Source: a virus (taxonomy: Duplodnaviria > Heunggongvirae > Uroviricota > Caudoviricetes). From it: a DNA stretch of 7,963 bases. Made by a program: the position numbers and the translations under genes. The stretch lies in IMG/VR virus record IMGVR_UViG_2636416161_000013, positions 1-7,963 of that record; one strand, 5' to 3'. Positions 1 to 7,963 of the stretch are shown here, one piece after another (positions within the stretch are counted from its first letter, which is position 1; every line of letters starts with the position of its first letter). The notes under the pieces are model-generated. The model saw only the letters and a list, made by a program, of their open reading frames with translations, had not been told where the DNA came from and made no database searches.

Positions 1-680
1 GCCACAGGAACCGAACGGGATTTTCCGTTTTTGGTGTTAAAGAACGTCACCCGGTTGCCAACGATATGCTCTCCACGTAGTTCCGATGCTTCACTCCATC
101 GGGCACCAGTAGAAAGACACAGAATGGCAACACGACGCGCATCACCCTCCAGTCGCTCAAGAAGCCGTTCAATCTCATCATCAGAAAGAAAGGCCATCTC
201 TGTGTTCTGAACTTTCAGTTTTCGTATACCGCGTACAGGGTTCGCGTTGTGAAAGACCTCAGCTTCAATCAGCACCGTGAACATGGTAGACAGAACGCAC
301 AAGTCACGATTAATGCTGGATGGCATTAAGCCGGCCTGTAATTTCTCTGACCGATACTCAAGCATAAATTTTTGCGTCATCTGGCTGGCACGCGGATCTC
401 CCATTTCACGAATCACTTTCTCCATCCGGATCCTGTAGGTATCACCGTAAGCCTGGTTACGGCCATCAAGCATCCACCATATATCAAGCAGCTCTGATAA
501 TCTCCGTCGATCAGCAGGTTTAGCCAGCCATGGGTTGTTATGGAAATTCTGTAAAATATGTTCTTTGAAGGCCTCCGCACTCCCTTTCCTGACAAAAATT
601 TTACGTATCCGTTTGCCGTACGCCCCTTGGGGCCTGATATCGAGCAGCCATCGCCCATCATCCATCTTTCTGATCGACAT
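1..680 (-). CDS. Tyrosine recombinase / phage integrase, P2/186-like class; N-terminal 226 codons only, C-terminal catalytic end lies beyond the left window edge
   Basis: Minus-strand frame with ATG at 680-678 and no in-frame stop down to position 3; not in the supplied ORF track because it runs off the edge. Translation MSIRKMDDGRWLLDIRPQGAYGKRIRKIF...VAILCLSTGARWSEASELRGEHIVGNRVTFFNTKNGKSRSVPV shows an arm-binding-type N-terminus and the conserved LSTGARxSEA box carrying the first catalytic Arg of tyrosine recombinases. Strong SD AAGGAGG lies 10 nt upstream, inside the 3' end of the primase gene; primase stop TAA (685-683) is 2 nt from this ATG. Confidence 0.8.
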   Translation of the reverse strand, partial: MSIRKMDDGRWLLDIRPQGAYGKRIRKIFVRKGSAEAFKEHILQNFHNNPWLAKPADRRRLSELLDIWWMLDGRNQAYGDTYRIRMEKVIREMGDPRASQMTQKFMLEYRSEKLQAGLMPSSINRDLCVLSTMFTVLIEAEVFHNANPVRGIRKLKVQNTEMAFLSDDEIERLLERLEGDARRVAILCLSTGARWSEASELRGEHIVGNRVTFFNTKNGKSRSVPV

Positions 681-682
681 AC

Positions 683-3352
683 TTAAGCCCCCTCCTTGTT
701 ACTAAATATCCAGCATTTCAATACCTCCTTCTCTCTGGCCTCGGCTATTCCCCTCCCGGCGTTCGCCTGTCTGGATACCTCGCTACGGACGGGCTTGTAT
801 CCAATCAGCGATCGAGAACGGCCAGCCTTGAGAAGCTTTATCATTTCGGGATTGGTTTGGATCTTCACGTGGTGAACGGCGGCAACCTGCTCAAGTTGCG
901 GGATACTGACGGCAAACTCATTCTGCCGTCCCTTGCCAAAATGATTTACGCCGTATGCTGTGATGCCGTCCAGATAGTCGAACGCCTCCCAGAACGCCAT
1001 CACTTCCGGCAAGTCATCCATTACCGCTTTAGCCTGCTCCTCTGCCATTCGCTCCAGTTCCAGACATGTGGCATCAAGCCATTCATCCGGGATATCAATA
1101 ACGCATTTCAGCGCCCTGACCAGTGCAATTAGTTGCGCGTGATTTTTGGCAATACGCTGATGGCGAATATTCTCGCAACCGTAAAGGCGGGTTGTTTCAG
1201 AATCCGAGAGTGCCATAAACAGATCCATAATCGCCCGCTCCTGGCTTACTGCCCGATGGATAAAACCTGATACCTGCTCAACGGGGTAAAGCTCCAGCCG
1301 TTTTGCTGCCAGTCGGCTATCTGGTGAGTGGCGTTTTTTATCGGTGTATATACGTACCAGACGCTCGATAATTGCCGATGAGGCGTTTACCGTGGCATTC
1401 TGCGCAATCACGACAGCCCCTTTAAAAACGGGGTCATATGTGGCGTTATCATTAGTTTTAACACCACGTACCCCAATACCACCGCCGTTATAGAGGCTTT
1501 TCAGGTTATCAAAGTCAAACGCACCTCTTTTTTGCGCATTGTCCCCCCGGTCTGCTTCAATCAGAACAACAGGTAATCCGGCGACCTGTCCAAAAGTTCG
1601 CTTCCAGCCTGATTCCGATCCTTTGGTTGGATCAACACCTTCATAGTTGTCACGGCCACACAAACGCCAACAAAAATCAATCAGCGTTGTTTTACCCGTT
1701 CCAGGCTCTCCGGTAATCTCAAGAAAAGGGTAAGACGTGTTTTTCTGCCTGATTTGTTCGCTGAACAACGAACCCAGCCAGAAGGCCAGGGTAATAATTC
1801 CCTTTTCACCAAAAGCCAGCCAGAGATCTTCCACCCAGGATATTGTGAATTTATCCGGTTTTTTATAGTTAATCTGCAATATTGGTTTTTTATTCAATGG
1901 TTTTGCGTTTATGCCATCAATTTCAAAATAATCCTCTTCATTGATTTCGTAGGTTTTACCATTACAAACCGCGACATCATTAAACAGCCACGCGCCAATC
2001 TCTTTGTTGTATCCGATAAAATCCTGACCGATAACATTTTTTATTGCGGGAAGGTCATTTTTTATTAATGCATCAAGGTGCGCAGTCGTTCCGGTATAAA
2101 TACCGCCTTTTGCCACATGCAACAGGCGTTTTTTAAATTCAGATGCGGATGTTAATTGTCCTGATGTAAAGGTGTTTTTCACCGTCGCACCATCCGGGAA
2201 CGTAACACGGAAGTAATACCATGCTTCATCCGTGTCATTGTTTCGAATGTAATAAAGCGGCGCCGGGTTACAGTTTGCGATTTCTTTTACAGCGCCGGAT
2301 TCCTTAAGTGCAATTTTGCGCGCTTCATCTTCGTCAACATTTCGCTCATTTATGACGCGTTCAACAGCCTTCATATGGCGCTCAATATCCAGTTTGAACC
2401 AGAAAACACGGTTATCAAAAGTAAAATGAAATTCCTTTCGCTCACGAAAGGAAAACATTATCAGCGCCTTATCTCTCGGAGATTTTGCCAGCAATAAATC
2501 ACCGTAATAACGGTATCTTTTCACATCATGGCCACGCAGCTTTCCGGCGATGTGTAAATCATTCCAGTCGCGTTTATTACTGTTTTTTCCTGGTAACGCC
2601 GCTGCCGTTCTCCAGCCGTCTTCGGCGCTGCGTTCTGCATGTTTTTTCGCATAACGCTCACCCGCACGCCCGTTATCCAGCGCCCACACGATAACCGGAC
2701 GGGGATTATCCCCGCACAGCTTCGCCAGCTCTTCCAGCGCCTTATCAGGGTAGTTTACGGCAGACATGACAGAAACGGCCGCAATGCCATTCTGGTTAAG
2801 GCTGATGGCATCAAAGATACCCTCACAAATCCAGATTTCTTTGGCCTTGCTTAAATCATCTCCCGGATAAGCCCACCACAACCCCTTGTAGCTGCCGGAA
2901 AAATTCGCCTTGCGCGCGAAGCGTTCCGGTCGGTCTATGATGCGCTCCCACCACACGCCGTCAGCCAGTGTAAAACGCACAGTAGCGGCCTGTTCGCCGC
3001 TTTCCTTGTCCTGGTATCGCTCCTGAGTAAATGCTCCCTTCAGTGGCTCCACAGCAATATTGCGTGCTTCCAGAAGATAAGCTGTCGCCGCTGCGTATGG
3101 ATTGTCTTTCGTGCTGATATAGCGATCTGACCATGATGAAAACACATCCGGGTAAAGTTCTTTGGTCAACAGGTCTGTACCGCATTTATTTTCGCGCCCA
3201 CAGTGCACGATGTACGGCCTTTCAAGGCTGGTAAAGAGCTCCTTCTTTCCACATTGCGGACAAACACCATACCGGAGGTAGTTATTTTCTTCTTTGAAGT
3301 TGTAATCACGGATAAGACGGTTAATAATCTCTTTTCTGGTGTTATGTTTCAT
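683..3352 (-). CDS. P4 alpha-like bifunctional DNA primase / helicase (zinc ribbon, EGYATA/TOPRIM-like primase domain, P-loop NTPase)
   Basis: 889-aa ORF. CPQC...HCGRENKCG zinc-ribbon (about 3179-3262); ICEGIFDAISL primase motif resembling the EGYATA signature (about 2798-2830); Walker A GEPGTGKT verified on the nucleotides at 1688-1711; Walker B-like VVLIEAD (about 1550-1570). SD GGGGG about 8 nt upstream of the ATG at 3352. Confidence 0.9.
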   Translation of the reverse strand: MKHNTRKEIINRLIRDYNFKEENNYLRYGVCPQCGKKELFTSLERPYIVHCGRENKCGTDLLTKELYPDVFSSWSDRYISTKDNPYAAATAYLLEARNIAVEPLKGAFTQERYQDKESGEQAATVRFTLADGVWWERIIDRPERFARKANFSGSYKGLWWAYPGDDLSKAKEIWICEGIFDAISLNQNGIAAVSVMSAVNYPDKALEELAKLCGDNPRPVIVWALDNGRAGERYAKKHAERSAEDGWRTAAALPGKNSNKRDWNDLHIAGKLRGHDVKRYRYYGDLLLAKSPRDKALIMFSFRERKEFHFTFDNRVFWFKLDIERHMKAVERVINERNVDEDEARKIALKESGAVKEIANCNPAPLYYIRNNDTDEAWYYFRVTFPDGATVKNTFTSGQLTSASEFKKRLLHVAKGGIYTGTTAHLDALIKNDLPAIKNVIGQDFIGYNKEIGAWLFNDVAVCNGKTYEINEEDYFEIDGINAKPLNKKPILQINYKKPDKFTISWVEDLWLAFGEKGIITLAFWLGSLFSEQIRQKNTSYPFLEITGEPGTGKTTLIDFCWRLCGRDNYEGVDPTKGSESGWKRTFGQVAGLPVVLIEADRGDNAQKRGAFDFDNLKSLYNGGGIGVRGVKTNDNATYDPVFKGAVVIAQNATVNASSAIIERLVRIYTDKKRHSPDSRLAAKRLELYPVEQVSGFIHRAVSQERAIMDLFMALSDSETTRLYGCENIRHQRIAKNHAQLIALVRALKCVIDIPDEWLDATCLELERMAEEQAKAVMDDLPEVMAFWEAFDYLDGITAYGVNHFGKGRQNEFAVSIPQLEQVAAVHHVKIQTNPEMIKLLKAGRSRSLIGYKPVRSEVSRQANAGRGIAEAREKEVLKCWIFSNKEGA

Positions 3353-3364
3353 ATATAAATCCCC

Positions 3365-3393
3365 CCCACTGCACCTTTTGCAGTGGGTTTTTT
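3365..3393 (+). terminator. Hairpin (9-bp stem CCCACTGCA / TGCAGTGGG, 5-nt loop) followed by TTTTTT on the plus strand; intrinsic-terminator-like in the plus orientation
   Basis: Perfect inverted repeat 3365-3373 / 3379-3387, T-run 3388-3393. In the sense (minus) orientation it is preceded by an A-run and followed by GGGGAUUUAUAU, so it is not a canonical sense terminator; it abuts the primase SD. Confidence 0.5.
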
Positions 3394-3398
3394 ATTAA

Positions 3399-3698
3399 TT
3401 ACTCGTTGCTTATTGCTTTGGCAATCCCGGCGGTTTCGGCGCTATGCCATGAAAAAATTCCGCCGGATGAATGCATACCAGATTTTATTGATTGTAATTC
3501 CCTATAAATAATGTTAGACAGAGATGCAATTTCTTCATTTATAATTTCTGCTGATGCTCTGCCATTTTTATCGTCAAAAACCACAGATATTAAACTGACG
3601 AGATTAATCACATCTGTGAGATCTTCCTTTGCACTTTCTGTAAAAAAGCCAACATATTCTCTATCTAAAAAATTTTCGCTATTCTGACGTTTAGACAT
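3399..3698 (-). CDS. Hypothetical protein, 99 aa, moderately acidic, AT-rich gene
   Basis: ORF with ATG at 3698 and SD GGGGAG 5 nt upstream; stop TAA at 3401-3399. I counted about 15 Asp+Glu against 9 Lys+Arg. Visibly more AT-rich than flanking genes. No motif recognised. Confidence 0.6.
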   Translation of the reverse strand: MSKRQNSENFLDREYVGFFTESAKEDLTDVINLVSLISVVFDDKNGRASAEIINEEIASLSNIIYRELQSIKSGMHSSGGIFSWHSAETAGIAKAISNE

Positions 3699-3765
3699 AA
3701 AAACTCCCCGACCCGTTAAGGCCGAAATATAAATTTAATTCAGTTATCAGTTGGTAATTCGGGAA

Positions 3766-3996
3766 TCAGGCGGAAAGCTGCGTCACCTTCAACGCCCTGA
3801 AATGTGTCATTCCCAGCTCTTCCAGCCCTTCGGCTGCGCGGCGTATGGCTTCGCCCGGTCCCGTTCCGTATACCGTTGCATGTGCATGTGCATGTGCATG
3901 TTTGGTTAACCCACGTTTATTAACGGCATAACCCAACACAAAGAAACGTTTTTCACCACTGCCATTATTTTTACGGGATGTTGAACGGGTTTTCAT
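3766..3996 (-). CDS. Hypothetical protein, 76 aa, containing an internal (His-Ala)4 repeat
   Basis: ATG at 3996 overlaps the stop of the upstream ORF in an ATGA arrangement (translational coupling). Encodes KHAHAHAHAT from a hexanucleotide tandem repeat. No family recognised. Confidence 0.6.
   Translation of the reverse strand: MKTRSTSRKNNGSGEKRFFVLGYAVNKRGLTKHAHAHAHATVYGTGPGEAIRRAAEGLEELGMTHFRALKVTQLSA
3876..3899. repeat. Perfect hexanucleotide tandem repeat (GCATGT)x4 on plus = (CATGCA)x4 in sense, inside the 76-aa CDS
   Basis: Direct reading: gcatgt gcatgt gcatgt gcatgt at 3876-3899; in frame it encodes His-Ala x4. Confidence 0.9.
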
Positions 3997-4181
3997 TTCT
4001 TCACCTTTACCACTGATGCTGTGAGTTCTTCTTCTGGCAACTGATATTTCGGCGCAATTTCTTCCGTATACCTGATAGCGTCCCTTGCCGCTTTTCCTTT
4101 TGATTTATATTTATATGTGGTCCGGTAGTTTTCTTCCTCTCCTGTTACCACATTACGCAATTTAATATGAATCTCGTACAT
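3993..4181 (-). CDS. Hypothetical small protein, 62 aa (MYEIHIKLRN...)
   Basis: I prefer the internal ATG at 4181 over the track start at 4211: it has SD GGAGGGG 5 nt upstream and sits 2 nt after the stop of the preceding ORF, whereas 4211 has no usable SD and overlaps the upstream gene. Lys/Glu-rich; no motif recognised. Confidence 0.55.
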   Translation of the reverse strand: MYEIHIKLRNVVTGEEENYRTTYKYKSKGKAARDAIRYTEEIAPKYQLPEEELTASVVKVKK

Positions 4182-4183
4182 CG

Positions 4184-4366
4184 TTACCCCTCCATGATTT
4201 TTACTGCGCATTTGTGGGTTAATCGCCCCTGTTCATTCGTGCGGCTGTACTCCATGCGGCTGGCAGCACGCAGGGCATCATCACAGGTCTGATATTCCCT
4301 GACATGAAAAAACTGACGAACGTCGCCGCTCTGGCAGTTAATCAGGGTGATAAGGAGCTTAAACAT
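4184..4366 (-). CDS. Hypothetical small protein, 60 aa (MFKLLITLINCQSGD...)
   Basis: I prefer the ATG at 4366 (SD GGGAGG 6 nt upstream) over the track start at 4444, which is a GTG. It overlaps the stop of the upstream ORF as ATGTTTAA. No motif recognised. Confidence 0.55.
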   Translation of the reverse strand: MFKLLITLINCQSGDVRQFFHVREYQTCDDALRAASRMEYSRTNEQGRLTHKCAVKIMEG

Positions 4367-4886
4367 TGCACGCCTCCCGGATACGAATACGGGCAACAAA
4401 GACCAGACGGGATGCCGGAAGCAGGGCGCGCGCTTCGCGCTCACTGGCAGCGGTAACGGTATGAAGGCGAATATTTTTACCGTGGCACTGCATAAAGCGC
4501 CAGATAAAATCAGGGCGTGTTGATATAGCCATTTTGGCGGCTCCTTGATTAAGTTTACGGAGTCTCGCCAGCACGCTGCTAAACATGGTGGCGGGACGTA
4601 ACAGGGTTAGCAGACTGGCAATCAAGGAACCAGCGAGCGCAAAGGCTCCCCCATTACGCCCCGCCATAATACGGGGTAGGGTGGAATTACGGGCACAAAA
4701 AAACCGCATTACGGAAATATAGCGGCTACCCGCTTGATTGTTCAGGCTGCTAAACCCGGCACCCGCTTTATGAGGTGCGGGCAAACGATACGCCATGACA
4801 AAAAAGCGAGTCAAGCAATATTGCAAATTATTTTTGCTCACTTGCGCTGAGTGATTGATTTTAAAGAGTAAAAAAGCCATAATCAT
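4359..4886 (-). CDS. Hypothetical protein, 175 aa from the ATG at 4886, or about 145 aa if translation starts at the ATG at 4796 (MAYRLPAPHKAG...)
   Basis: Long minus-strand ORF whose stop overlaps the next gene start. The first 30 codons are AT-rich with only a weak SD (AGGCAGAA), so the true start is uncertain. No family recognised. Confidence 0.5.
   Translation of the reverse strand: MIMAFLLFKINHSAQVSKNNLQYCLTRFFVMAYRLPAPHKAGAGFSSLNNQAGSRYISVMRFFCARNSTLPRIMAGRNGGAFALAGSLIASLLTLLRPATMFSSVLARLRKLNQGAAKMAISTRPDFIWRFMQCHGKNIRLHTVTAASEREARALLPASRLVFVARIRIREACNV
4855..4883 (+). promoter_or_regulatory. Candidate sigma70-type promoter on the plus strand (TTGATT -17 bp- CATAAT), antisense to the small-ORF operon
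   Basis: -35-like TTGATT at 4855-4860 and -10-like CATAAT at 4878-4883 with a 17-bp spacer; a plus-strand hairpin/T-tract lies about 70-100 bp downstream. Motif match only, in an AT-rich region; weak evidence. Confidence 0.3.
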
Positions 4887-4948
4887 TTCTGCCTATTACT
4901 TCTTATTGCTGACTTTAGGTGCATTAAATGCACATCCTTGACTGGTTG

Positions 4949-4980
4949 GCTCGCTAGCTTCAGCGAGCTTCTTTTTTTTT
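4949..4980 (+). terminator. Rho-independent terminator-like hairpin on the plus strand (7-bp GC-rich stem GCTCGCT / AGCGAGC, 6-nt loop, then TTCTTTTTTTTT)
   Basis: Inverted repeat 4949-4955 / 4962-4968 followed by a T-tract at 4969-4980, nine of them consecutive. In the minus orientation the hairpin is preceded by an A-run and followed by non-U sequence, so it is oriented against the genes. Confidence 0.6.
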
Positions 4981-5080
4981 GCTCTGCTGCCAGTCCTTGG
5001 CCTCCTTCCCCCACATGTAGCAATACGTTCAGATCTGTAAGTTTTGCCACCCAGTGATGGACGCAATAAACCACCAACGC

Positions 5081-5401
5081 TTATTCAACTCTGGCGCTAC
5101 CGGATTCTCTCTCCCTTTTCTTTTTGGCGTTTTCGTATGGGTTATTCACTTTGGCAATAACTGGCGGATTACGTAGCCACCACAAAACATCACTTAACAG
5201 CCAGGTACATGAGCAACGCCCCAAAGAGTGACGAGGAGGAAAAGCACCGATCTTCTCCAGTTCCCAGCGGCGGGAGCGTGAAAGCGTGGTCATTTTTTTA
5301 CACTTCTCTTCCCTGATGCGTTCTTCGCAGTCAAAGCCATACTCGGCGAGTATGGTGCGGCGCTGTTCTGGAGTTGGTGGAATGAATGCGGATTGAGTCA
5401 T
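5081..5401 (-). CDS. alpA: AlpA-family (prophage CP4-57 regulatory / P4 Vis-like) helix-turn-helix transcriptional regulator, 106 aa with an N-terminal extension
   Basis: Translation contains MTTLSRSRRWELEKIGAFPPRHSLGRCSCTWLLSDVLWWL, matching the AlpA-type HTH pattern (SRST-like turn, G.FP, LG, W, Wl) as I recall it. ATG at 5401 with SD GGGGGA 4 nt upstream; an internal ATG at 5293 would give the about 70-aa core only. Confidence 0.8.
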   Translation of the reverse strand: MTQSAFIPPTPEQRRTILAEYGFDCEERIREEKCKKMTTLSRSRRWELEKIGAFPPRHSLGRCSCTWLLSDVLWWLRNPPVIAKVNNPYENAKKKRERESGSARVE

Positions 5402-5496
5402 ATTTCCCCCTATGTTTCTGAACTTTCGGGGGAGATTTTTGTTTTACGGAGTTTTGAAAGCAAGTATTAAAGGTCTTATTAAGATGCTTGCTGGTC

Positions 5497-6549
5497 TTAC
5501 TGAGATGATGCTTTAATCCATCTTGATATAGTACTTTTATCAAAGCGCATATTGAGTCCTGCCTCTCTTGCTTCCGCGGTCAATATATCAGCAAGTTTTA
5601 CCGGATTGTTTTCGAGTTCTTTATAATGAATAACAAGCATCGCACGAAAAAAATCCTTCATTGTTTTAGATAATCGTTCTATATTGTTTTTATTGGTGCA
5701 TATGTCTTTCTCTCCATCCTCAGAACTTAATATATTGTTACCCGCACACAAATATAAAGTATCTGCCAATGGATTAACATAATCTTTTCTTAACTCGCTA
5801 TTGGAGTTTGTAGCATTTTGTATTTTTAAAAAATCATTCTTTAAGATATATAAATCACCAATATCAAAAGAAACATCCTCAGTAACAATTAGTCCTATAT
5901 GTATATCAACGTCAGAAGCAATTATAATATTGCTATTAATTATTCGGTTGGCTTTAAACTTCTTATTAAAATCATAGTTGGCAAAAAAACTTCCCCCCAA
6001 AGCGAAAATGCCGCCTATTTCAACAAAATACTTATGGTATTTTTCTTGAATACCTTTAAATACTGGTGGCACAACTGCCACAGCTCTTTCATCCGTTGCT
6101 ATTCGATATACACTATATATGTGATAATTTTCCCCATAATATACCCCCCTGTTATAATAATTTAACAAAGCAAATGCAGTATCAATTGCTATGTCACCAA
6201 ATTTGGGCGCTACATATGAATGACTTAGAGATTCGCACATTGAATCAAATATAATTCTCGACTTGGTTTTTATATAATTAAAACCATGGTGTTCTGCCGC
6301 CCTTTCTGAAATGGCATCAAGATCAGATAACCGTGATTTACACGGTTCTGAATCCATAAACTTACGCAGACAATCGAAATTAACCACATCTTTTTCATCT
6401 GGGATATTTAATACTCCATATGCAGATTCAATTTTTATACAAATACGAATGCAGCCTGTCACAGCCCAATGAATAAGATCGTCAATATCGCAGTCTAATA
6501 ACTTTGCCGCGCGCTCAATAGGATAGTAATCTCTTAGTGGTAACGTCAT
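5497..6549 (-). CDS. Hypothetical protein, 350 aa, AT-rich gene immediately downstream of the integrase; function unknown
   Basis: ORF starts 16 bp after the integrase stop on the same strand with a weak SD. Asn/Ile/Tyr/Asp-rich product. N-terminal YYPIERAAKLLDCDIDDLIHWAVTG and C-terminal KSTISRWIK segments look HTH-like but match no motif I can name; no P-loop or other catalytic signature seen. Confidence 0.75.
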   Translation of the reverse strand: MTLPLRDYYPIERAAKLLDCDIDDLIHWAVTGCIRICIKIESAYGVLNIPDEKDVVNFDCLRKFMDSEPCKSRLSDLDAISERAAEHHGFNYIKTKSRIIFDSMCESLSHSYVAPKFGDIAIDTAFALLNYYNRGVYYGENYHIYSVYRIATDERAVAVVPPVFKGIQEKYHKYFVEIGGIFALGGSFFANYDFNKKFKANRIINSNIIIASDVDIHIGLIVTEDVSFDIGDLYILKNDFLKIQNATNSNSELRKDYVNPLADTLYLCAGNNILSSEDGEKDICTNKNNIERLSKTMKDFFRAMLVIHYKELENNPVKLADILTAEAREAGLNMRFDKSTISRWIKASSQ

Positions 6550-6565
6550 TCTTTTCGCTCACATA

Positions 6566-7768
6566 TTATTTATCTTTAACCATTTTTTCTAAACATTCAA
6601 GCCAGTCATTTAGAGCCTTTAATTTAAATGGGATATACTGGCTAAGATTATAGTTAAATTCTGCGGAGCCTGCATTATATACGTGACCTAATAATGACTC
6701 GACAATATGAGGCATTACCCCCATGTTGTTTAATCCAGTTGAAAATGTCCGTCTTAAATCGTGTAGTGTCCATTTTTCATTATGCCCGAATATTTTATAC
6801 ATTCTGCGACCTTTCAGAGAAACAGCTCTATGCGTTCTCTCCTCACCCAAAAGTAAGCCCGTCCTCCCGGTTTCCTGTTTTAGCTCTTTTAACCAGTCTC
6901 TTATGCCTTCGGGAATTGGCCGAATAATCTTTTTATTACTTTTACTGTTATTTCTTGGAACAATCCAAACCCATTCATTAAAATCCCACTCAATCCAATG
7001 AGAACGGCGAATCTCTACAGTTCTAGCCCCAAAGACAATAAGCAACTTTATTAATCTAGAAAAATAAATATCCCGATGTTTCTCCTTTGCAAAATACCAA
7101 AGATCTGATAGTTCGGCATCACTCAAAACACGGTCGCGCTGTCCGGCAGATTCCCCTACATCGGTTAACGTTAAATGAACCAGGGCATCACTGATGGCAT
7201 AACGCCGAACATTGCAAAACCGCAATGCCTGCTTGGAGAGCTGAAACATACGCCCCGCCGTTTTTGAACTTATAGCGCGAATCTCATCAAAACATTTTAC
7301 CCAATGGCGAGTATCGCACCGTGATAACGGATAATGGCCTATTCTGGGGTAGACATGTTTGCAGAATTGCGCCCTTATCAATTCCTCATCTTTGCGCTTA
7401 TGTCTTGCATAATTGACCAACCAATATTCCAACGCATCTCGAACAGTAACAGGAGCACGGGATTCTTCAGTAAAAAGTTGGAGTTCAATTTTTGGATCAA
7501 GACCATTAGCCAACCATTGACGGCAACGCTCACGCCACATCCTGGCATCTTTCAGACTAATATCAGGGTAATTCCCTAGAGTAAGACGAATAACTGAACT
7601 CTCACGCCCTCCAAGGCGATATGAAAAAACCCAGCTCACATGCCCTTTAGTTGATAACCTGACCCCTAACCCCTCTCCGTCAGCAAGCATTTCAACACGA
7701 TCCCTATGCGTTCCTTGCAGCGCCTTTAGTTTCCTGTCGCTGAGCTTATTCGTTCCAGACATCATCAC
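6566..7768 (-). CDS. int: Site-specific tyrosine integrase, P4 / CP4-57 family (tRNA-island type)
   Basis: 400-aa ORF. N-terminal arm-binding-like region LSDRKLKAL...GLGVRLSTKGHVSWVFSYRLGG...LGNYP.ISLKDAR and C-terminal catalytic region HDLRRTFST...LLGHVYN...Y. The track start at 7768 is a GTG; the first ATGs are at 7765 and 7762. Confidence 0.9.
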   Translation of the reverse strand: MMMSGTNKLSDRKLKALQGTHRDRVEMLADGEGLGVRLSTKGHVSWVFSYRLGGRESSVIRLTLGNYPDISLKDARMWRERCRQWLANGLDPKIELQLFTEESRAPVTVRDALEYWLVNYARHKRKDEELIRAQFCKHVYPRIGHYPLSRCDTRHWVKCFDEIRAISSKTAGRMFQLSKQALRFCNVRRYAISDALVHLTLTDVGESAGQRDRVLSDAELSDLWYFAKEKHRDIYFSRLIKLLIVFGARTVEIRRSHWIEWDFNEWVWIVPRNNSKSNKKIIRPIPEGIRDWLKELKQETGRTGLLLGEERTHRAVSLKGRRMYKIFGHNEKWTLHDLRRTFSTGLNNMGVMPHIVESLLGHVYNAGSAEFNYNLSQYIPFKLKALNDWLECLEKMVKDK

Positions 7769-7777
7769 CGTTCCGAT

Positions 7778-7800
7778 ATTGATACACGCATTGATACACG
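7778..7800. repeat. Two tandem direct copies of ATTGATACACG (7778-7788 and 7790-7800, 12-bp period) 10-30 bp upstream of the integrase start
   Basis: Read directly from the sequence; the position in the int 5' region suggests a protein-binding (operator or arm-type) site. Confidence 0.7.
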
Positions 7801-7810
7801 TGAAATATTA

Positions 7811-7889
7811 ATATCCAGAAAAAATGAAATCGAGCATGAACACAAAATCACTACAACATAATGATTTTGATTGATTTTTTATATCCAGA
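7811..7889. repeat. Direct repeat ATATCCAGA at 7811-7819 and 7881-7889 in the AT-rich region upstream of int
   Basis: Two exact 9-bp copies 70 bp apart; a 10-bp AT palindrome ATATTAATAT (7805-7814) overlaps the first copy. Confidence 0.5.
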
Positions 7890-7963
7890 GGGTAAACACC
7901 AGAAAAGTCAGGAACATAAAAAACATTACTTCTACAGTATGTTTCATATCTCTAACCATATGA

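Follow-up and report, generated by a model that had tools for sequence, protein, structure and literature searches.

A putative phage satellite in the 5′ end of Escherichia coli hpt joins an exchangeable integration module to a P2-phage-like backbone laid out as in P4

A 7,963-nt stretch of DNA from a Caudoviricetes virus record (IMG/VR record IMGVR_UViG_2636416161_000013, positions 1 to 7,963; hereafter the window) was analyzed in comparison with the corresponding locus of Escherichia coli NCTC9082, to which it was 99.9% identical (10 mismatches over 7,963 nt, nine of them located at 62–245 in int2). The NCTC9082 locus with its RefSeq annotation and 20 kb flank is designated L001, and positions beyond the window are given in its coordinates. 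The window turned out to be the right-hand 60% of an island spanning about 12.95 kb between gcd and hpt, which we regard with good confidence as an integrative E. coli phage satellite composed of an integration module and a reduced P2-phage-like backbone laid out as in satellite P4; judging from the genes and sites described below, P2-like phages are its likely helpers. An earlier note, made from the window alone, had proposed an integrative satellite related to P4 or resembling phage-inducible chromosomal islands (PICIs), and this proposal was well supported by the finding of an iteron origin, a cos region of P2 type, an ogr/delta gene, and a capsid homologue between att repeats. Module 1 (window about 5025–7923) places the island in the first 8 hpt codons, and module 2 runs leftwards from window 5024 to a point about 5 kb outside the window.

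Gene order and insertion in hpt

A six-frame listing of open reading frames (ORFs), domain scans, and the NCTC9082 RefSeq annotation together gave ten coding sequences (CDS) in the window, on the minus strand only, and in the 5′ to 3′ order int1, orf350, alpA, an "Icd-like" ORF, three small ORFs, orf99, the primase-helicase gene, and int2 (Table 1). This agreed with the earlier description of an all-minus-strand series of integrase, cargo, alpA, small ORFs, primase, and second recombinase, with the integrase about 3 kb from the primase; the distance from the int1 stop to the primase start was about 3.2 kb. P4 carries, likewise on one strand, orf88 (alpA/vis), cI, epsilon, orf151, orf106, alpha, crr/attP, and int, and the island follows the same plan. 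The statement of the earlier note that int and alpha are arranged differently in P4 was only half right: in P4, too, an integrase gene comes after alpha on that strand, where the island has int2.

Whereas hpt and gcd are adjacent in most E. coli, alignment with the empty hpt-gcd site of strain NT1F34 revealed two 24-nt att copies 12.95 kb apart with their first 13 nt forming an identical core, namely attL (CATTACTTCTACATAATGTTTCAT, L001 14972–14995) and attR (CATTACTTCTACAGTATGTTTCAT), and the right end of the island was placed at about window 7923. Read as its reverse complement, the att 24-mer gives the first eight hpt codons, and a replacement hpt start with a T4Y change and a new upstream region is supplied by the island. 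The flanks, which the earlier note had suggested searching for att sites, are chromosomal hpt and gcd, rather than the full-size prophage or plasmid context that the note had named as contrary to its view. The island was found in about 40 of 5,426 complete E. coli genomes, in each case between hpt and gcd, and in the loci seen the hpt site was held only by satellites. The int-alpA-primase order had also been described as typical of tRNA-associated islands, which did not hold here: the insertion is in the hpt 5′ end, a tRNA scan found no tRNA gene in the window, and a tRNA target was rejected on the grounds that the att site lies inside the hpt 5′ end.

A tyrosine integrase of the P4 type, equipped with an arm-binding domain, was predicted as the product of int1 (22% identity to P4 Int, E 1e-16), and its apparent specificity for the hpt 5′ end was deduced from the adjacency of int1 to attR. 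Two direct ATTGATACAC repeats on the attR side have a counterpart pair near attL (L001 15059 and 15071), and no further copies were found in the island and its flanks (L001 14900–28200) with one mismatch allowed. Such doublets in both arms are what an integrase that has an arm-binding domain would be expected to use, and they are considered candidate arm-type Int1 sites. The alpA gene encodes a putative AlpA/Vis-type excisionase-regulator that shares 32% identity with P4 orf88 (E 3e-10).

As a consequence of the insertion, the original hpt start and promoter are stranded beside gcd, and hpt is now preceded by island DNA including the arm-type repeats (window 7924–7963; L001 14459–15257). The rewriting of the start and promoter of this housekeeping gene may carry a physiological cost or benefit.

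Replication origin, cos region, and capsid homologue

Much of the island's interest (cos, ori, ogr, and the capsid paralogue) lies outside the window. The earlier note had reported no sid-, delta-, or psu-like genes and had recommended inspecting the flanks for packaging and capsid genes; none of these genes was indeed found in the window, but a cos region, an ogr/delta gene, and a gpN homologue were located just outside it.

The origin region comprises 324 nt (L001 19110–19433) around an AT-rich core and is flanked by a 42-nt inverted repeat. The heptamer GGTTACA is clustered at L001 19136–19407, 3′ of the replication genes, with 13 of its 18 copies in 48 kb, and this cluster has the appearance of a typical iteron origin.

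The cos region was recognized as a 171-nt stretch (L001 18729–18895) with 81% identity to non-coding DNA that adjoins the portal gene in P2-like prophages, the alignment including blocks of perfect identity. In UTI89, the matching stretch is found about 290 nt beyond the portal gene of a prophage that also has terL and a gpO-scaffold gene, at the position that cos has in P2. Within this region, GGTGACGGGGGAACAGCAC agreed, when compared by eye, at 14 of 19 positions with the P2/P4 cohesive end, and a search for the P2/P4 end GGCGAGGCGGGGAAAGCAC with up to three mismatches gave no match in 48 kb. Potential helpers appear to be common, because this cos type occurs in 1,173 of 5,426 E. coli genomes.

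A 60-aa Ogr_Delta zinc-finger protein (3.7e-11) is encoded 1.5 kb past the left end of the window (L001 18324–18506). Its identity to the first half of P4 Delta is 39%, and in having one domain it resembles Ogr and differs from Delta, in which the domain is doubled. A divergent 77-aa ORF (orf77) near ogr is a regulator candidate. Within 1 kb (L001 17926–18963) around the orf236 promoter, orf77, ogr, and cos there are 7 copies of the octamer CGTAATAC, out of 9 in 48 kb against 1.25 expected; it may serve as an operator for the 77-aa divergent ORF or the Ogr-like protein.

The capsid homologue (423 aa), the gene of which overlaps the stop of orf236 for a 236-aa helical protein, matched Phage_cap_P2 (3e-73) and, in a comparison with P2 gpN in the P4 procapsid structure (7jw1; 1.6e-56), was aligned from gpN residue 32 onward, where mature gpN begins. 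A 118-aa N-terminus of its own stands where gpN has its propeptide, and the protein is 33–40% identical to P2 gpN, 186 T, and PSP3 N. A PADLOC match of orf236 to JetC (E 0.0015) was dismissed as compositional (coiled-coil type). Based on the RefSeq annotation, no portal, terminase, tail, or lysis genes are present in the 12.95-kb island.

RNA immunity module and replication genes

Between alpA and the small ORFs, a C4 antisense RNA (RF01695) was detected over its full length (1–87) with 74.7 bits versus a gathering score of 45, together with an isrK-type RNA (RF01394; window 4697–4778) with 52.1 bits versus a gathering score of 50. A match to RF03163 in the isrK-like leader (29.5 bits) was below the gathering score of that model. 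The leader is predicted to carry a1/b1-type target sequences, and a promoter scan placed a sigma-70-like candidate, TTGACT-18-TATCGT, just upstream of it at 4814–4785. P4 matched the C4 and isrK models at the equivalent place (74.9 and 60.8 bits, respectively), and the isrK-C4 pair was also found in two islands described below (L012 and L019). This RNA immunity module had been missed by the earlier note.

Both RNAs fall within the 175-aa "Icd-like" ORF, in which the NCBIfam phage_ICD_like domain is limited to aa 127–168 and an internal ATG at 4532 with an upstream AAGGAG Shine-Dalgarno sequence would give a 57-aa protein. Because of this overlap with both RNAs, the terminal position of the domain, and the internal start, the long RefSeq CDS (173–175 aa) is probably an over-call across two non-coding RNAs, which is a practical point for annotation. 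Icd-like genes were found to be short (67–95 aa) in capsid-forming PICIs (cfPICIs) at the hpt-gcd site. The old P4 "cI" ORF was a comparable over-call.

The primase-helicase, in the translation of which the Walker A motif was read as GEPGTGKT, has its best phage relatives in Peduoviridae, i.e., ESSI2_ev239 (51%, full length), Ralstonia RSY1 (44%), and Pseudomonas Dobby (42%). BLASTP against P4 alpha gave short, motif-level matches only (E 0.002 and 0.02), and the protein appears to be a replication initiator of the phrog_1139 family, not P4 alpha. When portal and terL are left out of account, ESSI2_ev239 has its primase, ogr-like regulator, scaffold, and capsid genes in an order colinear with that of the island, which suggests that the backbone descends from a reduced P2-like genome. 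The primase gene itself may also be mosaic. Its GC content falls to 37–42% in the middle (window 1650–2250), and its identity to relatives is 75–84% in the 3′ half (window 700–1900) versus 94–97% in the 5′ half.

The second integrase gene, int2, begins 2 nt past the primase stop and ends 321 nt beyond the window; its full product (333 aa) is 87.5% identical in amino acids to Int of the P2-like prophage vB_EcoM-569R5 and 55% identical to P2 Int. It is thus classed as a probable P2-type tyrosine recombinase and appears by eye to be catalytically intact. In two of the close relatives (L002 and L005), window 1–631 is swapped; the int2 alleles share 53% amino acid identity, the other allele being 81% identical to the integrases of Xuanwuvirus and related P2-like phages, and the breakpoints are intragenic at about codons 17 and 257. 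These integrases are thus mosaics, and the int2 alleles track different P2-like lineages, which suggests that the protein acts on helper att sites, either using them or interfering with their use, or just that recombination with helpers is recurrent. The segment at window 1–631, the most variable one among close relatives, had also escaped the earlier note.

Exchangeable modules and the status of orf350 and orf99

Three close relatives displayed 92–100% identity to the island except for two replaced segments, window 1–631 (int2) and window 5440–6491 (orf350). A further island (L019), which is tRNA-adjacent and located beside mlaA/yfdC, has a backbone 91–96% identical from window 5024 leftwards, together with another integrase (420 aa), a short AlpA (73 aa), and no orf350. 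In every island copy examined, the ORFs were all intact and annotated. From these comparisons, int1-orf350-alpA appears to be a single swappable integration module. The island would accordingly be a natural example of satellites built from exchangeable modules, with one backbone carrying different integration modules and a related module residing in cfPICIs. The cfPICI-type islands in question occupy the hpt-gcd site in E. coli CFS3292 (L007) and AST240 (L008); they encode an HK97 capsid, protease, portal, HNH, terS, and terL, and their int and alpA are 65–70% identical to those of the island at the nucleotide level. One att site and a related integration module are hence common to two very different satellite types.

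A third island type beside gcd (L012–L014; NCBI GCA_008464345.1 and others) was observed to carry an orf350 homologue along with P4 markers, namely Phage_ASH, Derepression, DUF5375, an alpha-type primase, and a double Ogr_Delta, as well as its own Phage_cap_P2 homologue (330 aa; 23% identical to that of the island). Capsid paralogues therefore seem to recur in P2-associated satellites. No Phage_ASH or Derepression (PF25738) match was obtained in the island studied here, although both are present in L013 at the hpt site.

The earlier note had pointed out a GC mosaic with two AT-rich blocks, orf350 and orf99, in a backbone of higher GC, and had proposed that cargo was acquired at these two points. 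As to the composition, the note was right: GC in 300-nt windows spans 0.29 to 0.55 and is not uniform (uniformity being the other finding it had named as contrary), and by gene it amounts to 33.7% for orf350 and 35.7% for orf99, with 25.9% and 28.0%, respectively, at third codon positions. Intermediate values were seen for int1 (42.2%) and orf62 (39.7%), and the remaining window genes have 48–54% (alpA, primase, int2, orf76, and orf60, 48–51%). An explanation by a conserved backbone with two unrelated foreign cargo genes, e.g., defence or moron genes, also draws on the lack of a known family for either protein, on the finding of different proteins in the orf350 slot of different islands, and on the fact that both the int-alpA and the regulator-primase intervals are recognized PICI accessory slots (PMC10085698). 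The occupants of the two positions, however, argue for another view, and we consider the cargo explanation unlikely.

With regard to orf350, the segment at window 5440–6491 is replaced in strain E9 by a homologue with 27% identity (E 1e-33), in which approximately the first 55 and the last 65 residues are conserved. At its N-terminus the protein is predicted to carry a MerR/Xis-like winged helix, followed by a variable central part and then a conserved, helical C-terminal domain. Searching 1.84 billion representatives with a profile yielded 254 relatives, many matched only at both ends and none with a Pfam domain; two homologues with readable context again lie between an hpt/gcd-site integrase and alpA, one of these cases being the more P4-like island type with its own P2-family capsid homologue. 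Across islands the slot is occupied by a 352-aa variant, a 309-aa phrog_7144 protein, or a DUF6387 protein, and the cfPICI slot gene shares the N-terminal domain of orf350 (hhalign 96%). Since every slot occupant has 34–38% GC, the low GC is attributable to the slot or family and not to a recent foreign insertion. These features indicate that orf350 is probably one allele of a hypervariable, position-keeping family and not a random insert.

With regard to orf99, no match was found in Pfam, PHROG, NCBIfam, or PADLOC, and PADLOC likewise gave no defence system for the ORFs without a known family. The gene lies directly upstream of the primase gene in every copy examined (L002, L006, L017, L018, and L019 included), and its alleles form 62 clusters with 56–99% identity in E. 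coli and Salmonella. Its DNA identity (58–77% versus about 90–97% in its flanks) makes it the least conserved stretch of the backbone. Because a homologous allele is present in all relatives, even at the other att site and with the other integration module, and the gene is never absent or swapped, orf99 is best interpreted as a core, fast-evolving backbone gene and not as acquired cargo. The proposal of cargo at two points thus holds insofar as the intervals match PICI accessory slots and the orf350 slot swaps, but not for a homologous family such as orf350 or for the never-swapped orf99.

Comparison with known satellites and prophages

The similarity to P4 extends beyond the gene order to the isrK-like leader with C4/CI RNA between alpA and the small ORFs, the P4-type Int with an arm-binding domain, the Ogr/Delta-type zinc finger, the size of about 11–13 kb, and a cos region homologous to that of P2-like phages. 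In contrast, the island lacks sid, psu, epsilon/ash, cII, gop, and beta and has no DNA similarity to P4; the integrase behind its primase is P2-type and not P4-type, the primase is of the Peduoviridae phrog_1139 family, the active integrase is located upstream of alpA together with orf350, a gpN capsid homologue with a 236-aa partner is present, and the insertion is in hpt and not in a tRNA gene.

Membership in one of the defined satellite families (P4-like, PICI, or cfPICI) would be the simplest classification, given that int, alpA, primase, and a delta-like gene are core markers common to P4-like elements and PICIs. The P4-like set used by SatelliteFinder (Moura de Sousa & Rocha) consists of integrase, AlpA, Delta, alpha, Sid, Psu, and epsilon, and its types A–C allow at most two of these seven core genes to be missing (PMC10085698). 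The island has an integrase, an AlpA-type regulator, and Delta/Ogr, and is not filed as P4-like because at most four of the seven core markers are present. The CI-type immunity RNA downstream of alpA, which the island shares with P4, is a biological trait outside this formal set.

As for PICIs of Gram-negative bacteria, the order of int, accessory slot, alpA, Icd-like gene, and primase, the origin 3′ of the replication genes, and the size of 12–15 kb are shared (PMC6092414, PMC10085698), and the core trait of int, alpA-type regulator, and primase-replicase in conserved order is present. Sets of int, alpA, and primase are scored as Type C PICIs in SatelliteFinder (PMC10085698). The PICI core set also lists a capsid morphogenesis gene, for which the Phage_cap_P2 homologue would be the candidate in the island. 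According to Fillol-Salom (2018), PICIs have no phage structural genes, att sites never used by prophages, and a size of about 12–15 kb; the 12.95-kb length fits, but the major capsid homologue breaks the rule on structural genes. The Pfam/PHROG scans and annotated CDS contained no terS, which argues against a Type A PICI, and rpp was excluded by the absence of matches, no dedicated profile having been run for either gene. The island therefore matches only the generic int, alpA, and primase part of the PICI definition.

The cfPICIs sit at the identical hpt-gcd site, and their int and alpA, which are related to those of the island, likewise enclose a variable gene rich in AT. They differ in that the capsid of the island is P2-family and not HK97-type and that the island has cos, ogr, and a P2-type second integrase; the absence of portal, prohead protease, head-tail connectors, HNH, and terL separates it from the cfPICIs, which at this site have their own portal, protease, head-tail adaptor/connector, terS, and terL. 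Since neither its P2-family capsid homologue nor its second integrase of helper type belongs to the listed core of the four families (PMC10085698), we judge ordinary membership in any of them to be quite improbable. The component classes (satellite, cos piracy, capsid paralogue, CI RNA, and modular integration) are all known, and it is their combination that lies outside the four catalogued families. Definitions based on these families, with at most two core genes missing, probably leave the island unclassified, and if so, E. coli catalogues undercount this type.

Two further systems offered partial parallels. Ccm of SaPIbov5 is reported to be a satellite-encoded paralogue of the helper's major capsid protein that redirects capsid size (PMC5052747, PMC8569155); the island resembles SaPIbov5 in encoding a diverged homologue of the presumed helper's major capsid protein and in being a cos-type element that would be served by a helper terminase. 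It differs in the P2-family fold of the homologue, the Gram-negative host, its own 118-aa N-terminus, and the helical 236-aa partner, and a Ccm-like role of the homologue is putative. The isrK-like leader, C4 RNA, and short icd-like ORF recall the immI locus (c4-icd-ant) of phage P1 and the Salmonella isrK loci, but downstream the island has a satellite replication operon and no ant gene. PmCI172, a PICI with a capsid homologue, was rejected as the closest analogue owing to its helper, which is Mu-like and not P2-like. A search of the open-access literature subset found no description of hpt/gcd-site islands or P2-capsid-bearing satellites, which is a weak negative.

Finally, the island could be what is left of a decaying P2-like prophage that has lost its portal, terminase, tail, and lysis genes and is cryptic and no longer mobile. 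This would account for the Peduoviridae affinities of primase, int2, capsid, ogr, and cos and for the colinearity with ESSI2_ev239, but is very improbable in view of the intact ORFs in every copy, the occurrence of one backbone with two different integration modules at separate chromosomal sites, the clean att repeats and perfect empty site, the presence of a non-P2 integrase, alpA, and a P4-type CI RNA, the retention of exactly the cis sites that a satellite requires (ori and cos), and the divergence of the capsid protein with its own N-terminus, which implies long independent evolution and not recent decay.

Proposed life cycle and its implications

For the island as a satellite of P2-like phages, the following cycle is proposed. 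Int1 would keep the island in hpt, and the C4/CI RNA, once processed out of the early transcript's leader, would repress the icd-to-primase operon as in P4 and P1. A P2-like helper would provide the inducing signal, AlpA would promote Int1-dependent excision, and the primase-helicase would initiate replication at the downstream iteron origin. The Ogr/Delta-like protein and the helper Ogr would cross-activate late genes, the gpN paralogue and orf236 would form or reshape heads for 13 kb in a manner resembling Ccm and not the Sid of P4, and the helper terminase would cut the island at cos and package it.

Several points weigh against this interpretation. What the sequences show directly is the gene content and order, the att sites and boundaries, the swapping of modules, the RNA family matches, the iteron cluster, the cos homology, and the phage affinities of primase, int2, and capsid; the steps of induction, excision, replication, and packaging, the need for a helper, the redirection of capsids, and any roles of orf350, orf99, and int2 are inferred. 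Neither Sid nor Psu nor epsilon was detected in the island by Pfam, PHROGs, or BLASTP versus P4, and comparison of the island with the 3′ flank of the closest phage int gave no attP-like sequence for int2. No P2-type TGT-N12-ACA dyad is found upstream of the orf236-capsid operon, the overall count of such dyads being at chance level, and the structure model of orf236 was poor (pLDDT 58). The cohesive-end assignment rests on the similarity to a prophage cos region and to the P2 end sequence, and NCTC9082 has no second copy of this cos type, so that no resident helper is evident.

To our knowledge, P4 is the only worked-out model of a satellite that exploits P2-type phages. If our interpretation is true, the P4 layout combined with a P2-type cos and a capsid paralogue would represent a second way of hijacking capsids, arrived at independently, within one helper family. 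A more specific idea, which we hold tentatively and consider on the whole doubtful, is that the island belongs to an undescribed Peduoviridae satellite lineage, in which a reduced P2-like genome has acquired a PICI/P4-type front of int, alpA, and CI RNA, and its own gpN paralogue, with the 118-aa N-terminal extension being scaffold-like, would redirect heads together with the helical partner and not by Sid/Psu. Helper-type integrase alleles would be exchanged with P2-like phages, possibly using or interfering with helper att sites, and the two hypervariable AT-rich genes, orf350, with a MerR/Xis-like DNA-binding head and a variable sensor body, and orf99, would be determinants of helper specificity or sensing, analogous to the diversification of SaPI Stl.

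Other features of the window and island

The features of the window are summarized in Table 1.

Table 1. Features of the 7,963-nt window with their coordinates, strands, and supporting evidence.
Feature	Position	Strand	Evidence or remark
int2, first 226 codons (5′ two thirds)	1–680	minus	Int_N 8e-29 and Phage_integrase 3e-18
Primase-helicase, 889 aa	683–3352	minus	Toprim_2 6.5e-13; phrog_1139 DNA primase 2.8e-302; Walker A
orf99	3399–3698	minus	no family match
Three small ORFs	3766–4366	minus	no family match
orf76	3766–3996	minus	small conserved ORF
62-aa ORF (orf62)	3993–4181	minus	RefSeq
60-aa ORF (orf60)	4184–4366	minus	RefSeq
"Icd-like" ORF, 173–175 aa (RefSeq "host cell division inhibitor Icd-like protein")	4359–4886	minus	NCBIfam phage_ICD_like
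Probable true Icd-like ORF, 57 aa	4359–4532	minus	internal ATG and Shine-Dalgarno sequence
C4/CI-type antisense RNA	4584–4671	minus	Rfam RF01695
isrK-like leader and upstream promoter candidate	4697–4814	minus	Rfam RF01394; promoter scan
Putative swappable integration module (int1, orf350, alpA, attR-proximal arm)	5025–7923	minus	replaced in L019
alpA, 106 aa	5081–5401	minus	PF05930 (Phage_AlpA) 3.3e-7, 30.5 bits versus cutoff 21; phrog_2790 4.6e-30
orf350	5497–6549	minus	no family match
int1	6566–7768	minus	Arm-DNA-bind_3 6.8e-20 and Phage_integrase 3.2e-16
Two direct ATTGATACAC repeats	7778–7799	plus	candidate arm-type Int1 binding sites
attR core CATTACTTCTACAGTATGTTTCAT	7924–7947	plus	displaced first 8 codons of hpt

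Beside attL, on the opposite strand, a MazE/AbrB-like and PemK/MazF-like pair is encoded (L001 15258–15850). The MazEF-like pair is conserved in L019 at the other att site, which marks it as part of the backbone.

The small ORFs orf62 and orf60, which are annotated in all relatives examined, hold the position of P4 epsilon, orf151, and orf106, and showed neither family matches (Pfam, PHROG, and NCBIfam) nor similarity to these three P4 genes. A 9-bp GC-rich hairpin is located at 3365–3387 between orf99 and the primase start, with an A-run preceding it on the coding strand and a T-run after it on the gene-free plus strand. In orf76, a perfect (TGCATG)4.2 repeat at 3877–3901, detected by TRF (period 6, 4.2 copies, 100% match), encodes (HA)n, the copy number of which varies in frame, relatives having two fewer HA units.

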